DNA of 64,000 nucleotides from Escherichia phage vB_EcoM_OE5505: sequence record NC_054926.1; one strand, written 5' to 3'. The notes below the pieces were generated by a model. That model was not told the origin of the DNA. It saw nothing but the letters and a program-made list of their open reading frames with translations, and ran no database searches. Positions within the stretch are counted from its first letter, which is position 1; every line of letters starts with the position of its first letter. Below are positions 16,120 to 17,750 of the stretch, in pieces. The position numbers and the translations under genes were made by a program.

Positions 16120-16899
16120 TTAATTAAAAATATATACTTCATCAGTTCCATTCTTTTCTTTGGAATGATATATGTTAAAGACGTATTTTTTATTAAGATG
16201 CTTAACATTATATTTTTTAGACCATTCTTTAAGAAGAGTGTTTTCCTTTCCGTGATGCTCTAAAACATTCGACAGTCCAAATTTTATTCCTCTGTCATTT
16301 AAAGAATCTAAAAGATTTAAAAGGTCTTTTTCTTCTTCTTCTGACCAAAATTTATTATAATCAGCAACTGTTATAAGATATGGAGGGTCCACATATACAA
16401 AATCGCCGTCTAGAATTTTGACATCTTTAAAATGCAATGAACTAAAGATTATTTTATCACAATTTTGCTTAAAGTGATTAAAGCGTTTTTCACTATTTTT
16501 GTTTATAGTTCTTTTTCCAAACGGAGCAGTAAAATTTCCTTTATCGTTTATACGAATCATATTACTAAATCCGTGAAAATGAAGAACATAAAGTAAAAGA
16601 GGATCTCTAGTTTTATTATAATCTTCACGTAATTTCAAAAACTCTTCTTTTGATGTTTTTGATAGTTTATATTGCTTTATTACTTTTAATACGTCATCCC
16701 ATGATACATTAATAAGACGCTTATACATTTCAATAATTGGTTCTTGAATATCATTGGCCAATACAGGACCATTGACGTTCAAAGACACTGATAAACCTCC
16801 ACAAAATAAATCCACGAATCTGTCATATTTTGGAAAATGAGGCTTAAGTTCAGGTAATAATGACTGTTTATTACCTGTATACGCGATAGCTCCTAGCAT
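16120..16899 (-). CDS. dam: DNA adenine methyltransferase Dam (259 aa)
   Basis: DPPY motif (VYVDPPYL) and AdoMet-binding DLFCGGLSV; size matches T4 Dam. Confidence 0.9.
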
Positions 16900-17459
16900 T
16901 ATATTCTCTCATTTATTGCAGCAAAAAACGAATTATATAATTCTTCATCATATGTATTTGATAGTAATACTAACACGTTTTGTGATTTAGCATATTCATT
17001 AAACCTTGCTTGGATGGTTGGATTATCAGTAAATGATTCTCTTTTTGTCCATTTATTACGTGGATAATATCCGCATGGCAAAAAATCTAATATCATCAAT
17101 GACACAGGGTTTTCAGTTTTTGTGTATTCTTTTAATTTCTCTTTATCTTCTAAATATATTCCAACCGAATCAATAGCTGTACCTCCACCAACTTGGTGTT
17201 TAATTTCAATTATATGCTTTTTACCGTTGCGAGAAATAACAATATCAAATCTTCTAGTACGCTTCTTAGTTATAAAATTAGAACAAAACAAATTATTTGA
17301 TTTTTCAGTATCATCGGTTAAAACCATTTTTTCTTGATAACTAACTGAACAATCAGTGAAATATTCTTTTACTTTATTAAGTATGAAATTTTCAACTACG
17401 GCAGATATTTTATATGAATCTCCGTTTAAAGCCATTTCATGTACAATTTTATTAATCAT
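16899..17459 (-). CDS. hypothetical early protein (186 aa) with PD-(D/E)xK nuclease-like motif (RFDIVIS...HIIEIKH)
   Basis: ORF with its own early promoter and GAGGA RBS; motif read from translation; start overlaps dam stop region. Confidence 0.6.
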
Positions 17460-17483
17460 TATATCATCCTCAGCAATTTATTT

Positions 17484-17514
17484 TATAATACCATAACAAG
17501 CTGAGAAAGTAAAC
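17484..17514 (-). promoter_or_regulatory. T4-type early promoter for the 186-aa gene
   Basis: GTTTAC 17509-17514, TGGTATTATAA 17483-17493. Confidence 0.6.
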
Positions 17515-17558
17515 AAATTTATGAAATTTGTGATAAATATTAATTTAAAGGAGGACAC

Positions 17559-17750
17559 ATGGCACAAAAATTAATGGCACTTGTTGATGCCATAAAAGGT
17601 AATAAAAAACGTATAGCTTTTACTATTTCAGGAATTTTACTCTGGAACTTTATTTTATCACCCATTGCAATTGCACATGGTATTAATATTCCAGTAGTTA
17701 CTCTTGATACATTCGTAGATTTAGCATTTGCTTTAGTTGGGTTAATTTAA
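17559..17750 (+). CDS. small hydrophobic (membrane) protein, 63 aa, encoded on the opposite strand
   Basis: Strong SD AAAGGAGG 6 nt upstream of ATG; lies in a gap with no minus-strand ORF; stop overlaps stop of primase gene. Confidence 0.5.
   Translation: MAQKLMALVDAIKGNKKRIAFTISGILLWNFILSPIAIAHGINIPVVTLDTFVDLAFALVGLI

Follow-up and report, generated by a model that had tools for sequence, protein, structure and literature searches.

A 186-amino-acid (aa) open reading frame (ORF) directly upstream of the methyltransferase gene dam in Escherichia phage vB_EcoM_OE5505 (NC_054926.1) encodes a protein which, judging from its predicted structure, very likely has a restriction-enzyme-like fold and which is probably a functional partner of Dam. 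The window analysed here is the whole stretch of 64,000 nucleotides (nt) from this phage, a T2-like Tequatrovirus, and all coordinates are 1-based on it. The ORF (the “R” gene, 16899–17459, minus strand) belongs to PHROG 8706, a family without an assigned function in PHROG, while dam (the “M” gene, 16120–16899, minus strand) encodes a 259-aa GATC N6-adenine methyltransferase of the T4/T2 type (Pfam PF02086, E = 1e-50). The stop of the former and the ATG of the latter overlap as TAATG, which agrees with the earlier note on this DNA. We propose that the two genes represent a phage-borne cassette resembling the Type II restriction–modification (R–M) systems, whose nuclease would cleave GATC and would be blocked by Dam methylation; the chances that this proposal is correct are, in our view, about even.

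The earlier note had drawn attention to an aspartate followed, after 12 residues, by E-x-K, and had suggested a nuclease of the PD-(D/E)XK type. These residues are D72 (codon 17244–17246, minus strand, as are the following codons) and E85-I-K87 (17205–17207 for E85 and 17199–17201 for K87), within residues 70–88; the catalytic beta-hairpin, residues 69–98 (RRFDIVI...), is encoded at 17166–17255. Conservation of the motif among homologues, on which the note had made its suggestion depend, proved to be complete: E23 (codon 17391–17393), D72, E85, K87, H88, Q89, and a GTAIDS segment are invariant in eight sequences, down to 32–33% identity. The ratio of nonsynonymous to synonymous substitution rates (dN/dS) for the ORF is 0.17–0.19, in comparison both with the 63%-identical homologue and with T2, which demonstrates purifying selection on the gene. 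As read from sequence, this ORF and a small 63-aa ORF on the opposite strand, described below, are genuine genes rather than chance frames.

An AlphaFold2 model obtained from a six-member family alignment (predicted local distance difference test, pLDDT, 80.3; predicted template modelling score, pTM, 0.79) gives the order helix, three strands, helices, strand, helix, strand, helix, in which the core alpha-beta-beta-beta-alpha-beta fold of the PD-(D/E)XK superfamily is present. In this model, D72, E85, and K87 are placed on the second and third predicted strands (67–77 and 80–88) and E23 on helix 1. The significant Foldseek matches are exclusively PD-(D/E)XK nucleases, and the nearest structures are restriction enzymes, not homing enzymes; the model and these matches support the fold suggested previously. 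When solved structures were searched by sequence, designed repeat proteins (E ~0.3) were the sole matches, whether the query was the single sequence or the profile of the family, and an NCBIfam search returned noise; neither gave a meaningful match.

The decisive evidence for the pairing of the nuclease-like gene with dam is genomic linkage. Every homologue whose context was examined is located directly 5' of a T4-type D12 Dam gene, overlapping or abutting it, with junctions of the types TAATG, TAAATG, ATGTTAG, or overlaps of ~20 to 35 nt. The homologues were found in a Mosigvirus-like contig (63% identity), four contigs (57%), two remote relatives (~35%), one fragment, and Klebsiella phage KPV15 (43%). 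In KPV15, the pair is located between rIIB and the topoisomerase gene, not between primase and gene 56, and the gap between the latter two contains a small plus-strand ORF only. Therefore, dam and the nuclease-like gene travel as one unit, from which the small ORF is separate. Moreover, the pairwise identities of the R and M proteins co-vary (r = 0.78), the nuclease-like protein diverging faster. As expected for a Type II R–M system, an endonuclease-like gene adjoins a methyltransferase gene and is inherited with it, which is evident from the two loci and from this correlation. We suggest that dam and its neighbour represent a mobile cassette whose members co-evolve and which occurs across several Tevenvirinae genera; the evidence for this appears to be new. 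The earlier note had left open a modification-dependent nuclease, an R–M-like pair, or an anti-defence pair; synteny, including the separate KPV15 locus, strongly supports the pairing with Dam, and the modification-dependent and anti-defence options received no specific support.

The partner methyltransferases are T4-Dam orthologues (51–73% identity) with common YTGNK, FSNMIR, and APFG(K/R)R segments, which we take to be the GATC-contacting elements of T4 Dam; the window dam itself has 96–99.9% nucleotide identity to the T4 and T2-like genes. T4-Dam-like genes of PMBT1 (Slopekvirus) and Phi1 (Krischvirus) are solitary and adjoin nrdC; the genes upstream of them were considered as relatives of the 186-aa family and rejected as unrelated. 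Klebsiella phages KP15 and KP27 presumably belong to Slopekvirus as well, and the one Slopekvirus inspected, PMBT1, has a solitary dam. As cytosine-DNA carriers of the cassette, KP15 and KP27 (PMC3620542) were rejected: the carrier KPV15 is a separate Jiaodavirus with genes for hydroxymethylcytosine (hmC) and glucosyltransferases.

An exhaustive HMMER search of 1.84 billion proteins (representatives) gave 11 matches at E <= 0.001; the ones that could be assigned to a contig are of phage type, and the others are fragments, chimeric calls, or a repeat-protein artefact; P0016 (a 765-aa repeat protein), P0008, and P0010 were rejected as chimeric or spurious. No relative was confirmed by a pattern scan that covered 185,579 species of bacteria and archaea with one genome each. 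Bacterial or distant relatives did not emerge either from a profile search among 5.8 billion proteins (E <= 10) or from pattern scans of bacterial and viral contig collections.

The R gene is preceded by a Shine–Dalgarno (SD) sequence, GAGGA (17467–17471, minus strand, by direct reading), 7 nt 5' of its ATG, and by a promoter of the T4 early type, GTTTAC-N17-(TG)TATTAT (17485–17514, minus strand, from a consensus scan), which may serve both the ORF and dam. Both elements had been named in the earlier note, and the promoter is annotated independently in two near-identical records, of which ASO78A calls it an early promoter and JB75 a promoter. In the scan overall, promoter-like sites were no commoner than in shuffled sequence, so the call of this promoter rests on its T4-early consensus and its position.

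Variation of the locus among Tequatrovirus phages

Over the 1,051 bp around the locus, identity to Yersinia phage PYps55T and to Escherichia phage UTI-E4 is 99.2%. Tequatrovirus phages have one of three arrangements: the window/T2 type with the full ORF and dam, the T4 type with dam only, and the RB5 type with neither, where the small ORF alone is present. Among the Tequatrovirus records, ~181 carry dam and 147–153 the full 186-aa ORF, while the segment with primase and the small ORF is found in at least 502; roughly two-thirds of these T-even relatives are without dam. Most of the remaining matches represent short remnants of the 3' end, like those in the listed T4 records; a few are copies with a frameshift or a partial deletion.

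The textbook case of a solitary phage methyltransferase is T4 Dam, whose usual explanation is that it counters restriction. When the window is aligned with T4, T2, and RB5, T4 proves to be without ~540 bp between two direct repeats TTTGTGAT, which in the window occupy 16979–16986 and 17527–17534 and form the edges of the segment absent from T4; the T4 junction is TTTGCGATAAATAT. T4 keeps the last ~70 nt (~21 codons) of the 186-aa ORF, and a tblastn search detected residues 159–179 at 95% identity in the T4 records listed. Since the ~540-bp deletion left a remnant of the ORF, the solitary state of T4 Dam is secondary. The T4 “orphan” Dam looks like a relic of the R–dam cassette after deletion of the partner, a view which appears to be new, while dam in the window, in T2, and in ~150 other records is not solitary. 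The earlier note could not tell whether T4 has the 186-aa and the small ORFs: the small one is intact there, and the 186-aa one is not, being reduced to the remnant described. Miner and Hattman reportedly described in 1988 a 536-bp “insertion” 5' of dam in T2, for which no detectable homology is said to have been found.

A stretch of 9 nt (ATGAAATTT or, since its placement in the repeat is ambiguous, an equivalent register) is present in the window at 17521–17529, just upstream of a late-promoter-like box GATAAATA. This stretch is absent from T2, T4, and RB5 and creates the perfect second TTTGTGAT repeat.

T2 and T4 have a common 1-nt deletion near the 3' end of the ORF (window ~16910–16925; 1614–2159 of the analysed T2 stretch, L004, and 1614–1676 of the T4 stretch, L003). 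The T2 product is therefore 181 aa long, with the end ...NSFLLQ, and the overlap between its stop and the start of dam is lost. The common deletion suggests that a decay of the gene in the T2/T4 lineage preceded the T4 deletion. Other damaged copies are found in G29 (MK327940.1), where the gene is frameshifted (142 aa), and in KarlGJung/Bas37 (MZ501089.1), where a 61-aa remnant is left.

Almost all records list the identical protein as “hypothetical”. The T2 record AP018813.1 names it “head outer capsid protein”, an evident annotation slip, and GenBank MZ502379.1 (phage Shinka) names it [quoted passage not shown]. The bare prediction of a restriction endonuclease already has, with the latter record, a precedent at the level of annotation.

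Possible functions of the cassette

For a cassette of the proposed R–M-like type, we suppose the following course of events. Early transcription from 17485–17514 would yield the nuclease, and Dam would be made alongside it by translational coupling. Dam would methylate the phage’s own GATC sites, while the nuclease, which most likely is dimeric and Type IIP-like, would cleave DNA with unmethylated GATC inside the infected cell. It might attack co-infecting phages, among them the dam-less T-even relatives, and any unmethylated cytosine DNA; of these candidate targets, competing phages are the most attractive. Recognition of GATC and the block by Dam methylation, to which we give the same even chances, are suggested by the specificity of the partner, by a weak similarity to the catalytic half of DpnII, and by the strong avoidance of GATC in lineages with the cassette.

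As for DpnII, its Pfam family (PF04556; curated gathering cut-off 23 bits) was the top sub-threshold match of the window protein (16.8 bits, E = 0.0045) and was matched by four of the six family members, with the best E of 8e-5. In addition, residues 16–109 matched the PADLOC model REase_II for Type II restriction endonucleases (E = 9e-5). A DpnII sequence served solely as a probe (335.7 bits with PF04556; 99% identical to database protein P0017), and the DpnII-family alignment used in hhalign was built from database sequences alone. The comparison of the two families by hhalign gave P = 2.5e-4 at a probability of 43%, with significance over 34 columns. This segment is the catalytic hairpin, RRFDIVI... 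against KRFDFVI...LIEVNFYSGSGS of DpnII, and it is the sole segment with a significant alignment. Under relaxed settings, residues 1–164 are colinear with DpnII 126–285, E23, D72, and E85 standing opposite the invariant E152, D201, and E214; the order of secondary-structure elements also matches residues 126–288 in the AlphaFold model of DpnII.

Of the 4-bp palindromes in the window, GATC is by far the most strongly avoided (62 sites versus ~205 expected; observed-to-expected ratio, O/E, 0.30), and it also ranks first in avoidance in the sampled cassette-bearing lineages in general (O/E 0.08–0.36), namely in KPV15 (0.14), the Mosigvirus-like contig L006 (0.10), and the contigs L007 (0.08) and L013 (0.36), all of which have the ORF and dam. 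In contrast, the ratios are 1.07 in Phi1, with E. coli as a host, and 1.08 in PMBT1, with a Klebsiella host, both having a solitary dam. Since hosts are common to the avoiding and non-avoiding phages, this contrast is no simple host effect. GATC avoidance appears to track the lineages where the cassette circulates, which also appears to be new. Restriction-site avoidance is predicted if a GATC nuclease acts in the gene pool, and it does not discriminate between the readings.

Several observations weigh against an R–M-like cassette directed at GATC. The main difficulty is that the usual hosts are Dam-positive and the phage DNA carries glucosylated hmC, so that it is not obvious what the nuclease would attack or why the phage would have to protect itself. 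The order of R before M with co-expression is atypical for a system that has to establish itself, and the failure to detect bacterial relatives of the family is unusual for a restriction enzyme. The frameshift in T2 and the frameshifts and partial deletions in other phages mean that the 186-aa gene is dispensable and has been repeatedly lost. GATC is avoided in RB5 also (O/E 0.35), which has neither the ORF nor dam; the avoidance is confounded with hmC versus cytosine DNA, other causes of it have been proposed in coliphages, and in other coliphages it has reportedly long been known, as by McClelland in 1985. With respect to DpnII, the protein does not reach the PF04556 threshold, all DpnII-type matches are sub-threshold (16.8 versus 23 bits), the hhalign probability is low, the two most distant homologues have no match to DpnII, and DpnII has E-x-N where the 186-aa family has E-x-K. 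A literature search found no publication and no enzymatic or genetic data on the 186-aa gene.

The proposal can be carried further by supposing that the R–Dam cassette is a weapon between T-even phages, the nuclease tolerating (glucosyl-)hmC and cutting unmethylated GAT(hmC), which we regard as unlikely. Only phages with a linked Dam would then be immune; the dam-less Tequatroviruses (~two-thirds) would be cut in mixed infection, and repair would spread the cassette. This pressure, not host Dam or MutH, would be behind the GATC avoidance of the sampled Tevenvirinae sequences, which is absent in Phi1 and PMBT1 with their solitary dam and the same hosts. A selfish mobile cassette or a homing-type endonuclease, which would cut cassette-less genomes in mixed infections so that recombinational repair copies the cassette with its flanks, overlaps with the R–M-like reading and differs from it in that propagation, rather than defence or competition, is the selected function. 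The patchy distribution of the gene within Tequatrovirus could fit such an element, which we nevertheless consider quite unlikely: the Tequatrovirus- and Mosigvirus-like pairs occupy the same locus at 57–63% identity and co-diverge with Dam, which looks more like a long vertical association than like recent homing; the T4 polymorphism is a deletion with a remnant, not an insertion; and restriction enzymes, not homing enzymes, are the structural neighbours of the protein.

A similarly low probability is given to a nuclease for host or foreign cytosine DNA that acts irrespective of Dam methylation, the phage DNA being spared by hmC and the link to dam reflecting ancestry or regulation. T-even phages do degrade host DNA with the cytosine-specific nucleases EndoII and EndoIV; the cassette phages with seen gene content are all hmC-type Tevenvirinae, the T2-like relatives and KPV15 encoding dCTPase, hydroxymethylase, and glucosyltransferases, and the ORF has an early promoter and an operon common with the dCTPase gene 56. 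However, this leaves unexplained that an overlapping dam always accompanies the gene, relocated or not, and that GATC specifically is avoided. The protein could also be a non-catalytic or decaying relic, such as a Dam cofactor, a DNA-binding regulator, or a gene being lost, as the repeated damage in T4, T2 (a C-terminal frameshift), G29, and KarlGJung and a size of 186 aa versus 288 aa of DpnII, without the DpnII N-terminal domain, would permit. This is very unlikely in the face of the catalytic E, D, E, and K being invariant at ~33% identity, of the dN/dS of ~0.17, and of the ~150 records that keep the ORF at full length; moreover, 186 aa is within the functional Type IIP range and close to the 200-residue chain of MunI, so that the protein may be no fragment. 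MutH, a restriction-enzyme-type member of the PD-(D/E)XK proteins, acts at GATC in concert with Dam, and a MutH-like nickase for the unmethylated strand of hemimethylated GATC, serving phage mismatch repair or the initiation of recombination with Dam as the strand signal, would fit the tight pairing and, if monomeric, the 186-aa size. We hold it to be highly improbable; a likeness to MutH or Sau3AI was looked for, and the nearest structural and sequence relatives of the protein are not MutH-like.

If the partner of dam is an active GATC endonuclease, T2 and ~150 sequenced relatives carry a complete restriction–modification module, and the “orphan” state in T4 represents a lineage-specific deletion. 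In this case, the methylation and avoidance of GATC in T-even phages would become testable as self-protection against their own or a competitor’s nuclease, and the Type II restriction enzymes would gain a compact, phage-only family of 186 aa.

The small plus-strand gene and the neighbouring features

On the minus strand, the order is primase (gene 61, 17747–18775, the upstream neighbour outside the cassette), terminator, early promoter, 186-aa ORF, dam, and gene 56 (dCTPase, downstream of dam). The 287-bp gap between the 186-aa ORF and primase (17460–17746) gives room to the plus-strand gene of a small hydrophobic protein of 63 aa (PHROG 2024; 17559–17750), which is convergent with primase, the stops of the two overlapping. 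Its strong SD AAAGGAGG (17547–17554, plus strand) and the late-promoter-like box GATAAATA (17532–17539, plus strand), which has one mismatch from TATAAATA and lies at -27, were recovered as the earlier note had given them; every sequence feature which that note describes was found at its stated position. A conserved hydrophobic gene stands as well, whereas its membership in a unit with the nuclease and Dam does not, the gene being tied to the 3' end of primase.

The small protein has 66 aa in T4, T2, and RB5; a 9-nt in-frame deletion makes the window copy 63 aa long, and exactly this protein is on record for vB_EcoM_OE5505 only. Practically all of the 502 matching Tequatrovirus records contain its DNA. 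The same length and pattern (a K-rich N-terminus and xWNxxxxPxAxxxGxxxP) are kept in the Mosigvirus-like contigs and in Jiaodavirus KPV15, and two divergent copies differ far more in their synonymous (pS 0.90) than in their nonsynonymous sites (pN 0.155). Hydropathy points to a core at ~residues 19–41 and to a hydrophobic C-terminus. The stops of primase and the small ORF overlap in Tequatrovirus and in the Mosigvirus-like phages, while in KPV15 a hairpin lies between them. The gene stays with the 3' end of primase in phages which are without the cassette or have it elsewhere, and no link to the R–dam cassette was found; by these sequence features, it is a conserved small membrane protein gene separate from the cassette.

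A box NATAAATA is found at -27 to -30 of the small ORF in T4, T2, RB5, and the window, and a perfect TATAAATA at -27 in the Mosigvirus-like contig L006; these late-promoter-like boxes support late expression, and the gene is probably expressed late. In T4, the ORF is intact (1713–1913 of the analysed T4 stretch, L003) and is missing from the annotation of NC_000866.4. It is labelled “dam.1” in RB5 and “putative membrane protein” in JB75; the “Holin” label of one UniRef entry has no support in this analysis. A conserved Tevenvirinae membrane protein is absent from the T4 reference annotation.

In the Mosigvirus-like contig L006, an extra 93-aa ORF (4010–4291) lies between the small plus-strand gene and the nuclease-like gene. 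A terminator-like hairpin with a T-run follows primase at its 3' side in the window (17564–17593, minus strand; the hairpin at 17574–17593); detected by a scan, it is annotated as rho-independent in ASO78A and lies opposite the beginning of the small ORF, in antisense orientation. For the intergenic region, RNA folding gave no unusual structure (z = -0.9). The equivalent of gene 61.2 (18945–19301) encodes 118 aa, with 208 aa in T4 and 108 aa in T2, and represents a further variable accessory gene in the primase-to-spackle interval.

Comparison with known restriction–modification systems

Among the MunI/EcoRI-like Type IIP enzymes, MunI (PDB 1D02) is just 12% identical to the 186-aa protein, and its site is CAATTG, not GATC; the GTAIDS segment of the family loosely resembles what we take to be the EcoRI/MunI recognition motif, GNAxER. 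Seven plasmid regions found by following Dam contained enzymes of the AlwI or FokI type, or no annotated nuclease (in a Psychrobacter plasmid), and no DpnII-type system.

The DpnII/MboI systems are similar to the cassette in that the partner is a GATC methyltransferase of the Dam/DpnM class (D12), and DpnII cleavage is blocked by N6-methyladenine. The catalytic hairpin and the glutamate of the upstream helix (E152) align with the 186-aa protein (E23). The differences are in size and architecture: DpnII has 288 aa, within a full-length architecture of ~280–290 aa including an N-terminal domain, while the 186-aa protein aligns to DpnII 126–288 only and is without a counterpart of the N-terminal ~125 residues. 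In addition, R precedes M with overlapping codons here, and the pair is found in T4-like phages only, none being detected in the scanned bacterial genomes. Because of the sub-threshold score, the lack of the N-terminal domain, and E-x-K instead of E-x-N, the family does not belong to PF04556 and is best described as a distinct compact family, which may have arisen from a DpnII-like enzyme by way of its catalytic half. The region of the catalytic hairpin was weakly matched by BFVD A0A7G9A3Z2 (308 aa, “Bacteriophage sp.”) and by phrog_37791 (a 313-position profile); roughly of DpnII length, they may represent phage-borne full-length DpnII-like enzymes.

By description, the cassette is also like the systems of chloroviruses; no named chlorovirus restriction enzyme was among the BFVD matches. 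PBCV-1 with R.CviAI/M.CviAI is an example of a lytic virus that has a complete GATC Type II R–M pair with a methyltransferase of the Dam class. Chlorovirus hosts are eukaryotic algae, and chlorovirus DNA presumably carries methylated bases, not hmC. The chlorovirus pair is used during infection and not for long-term defence of the host.

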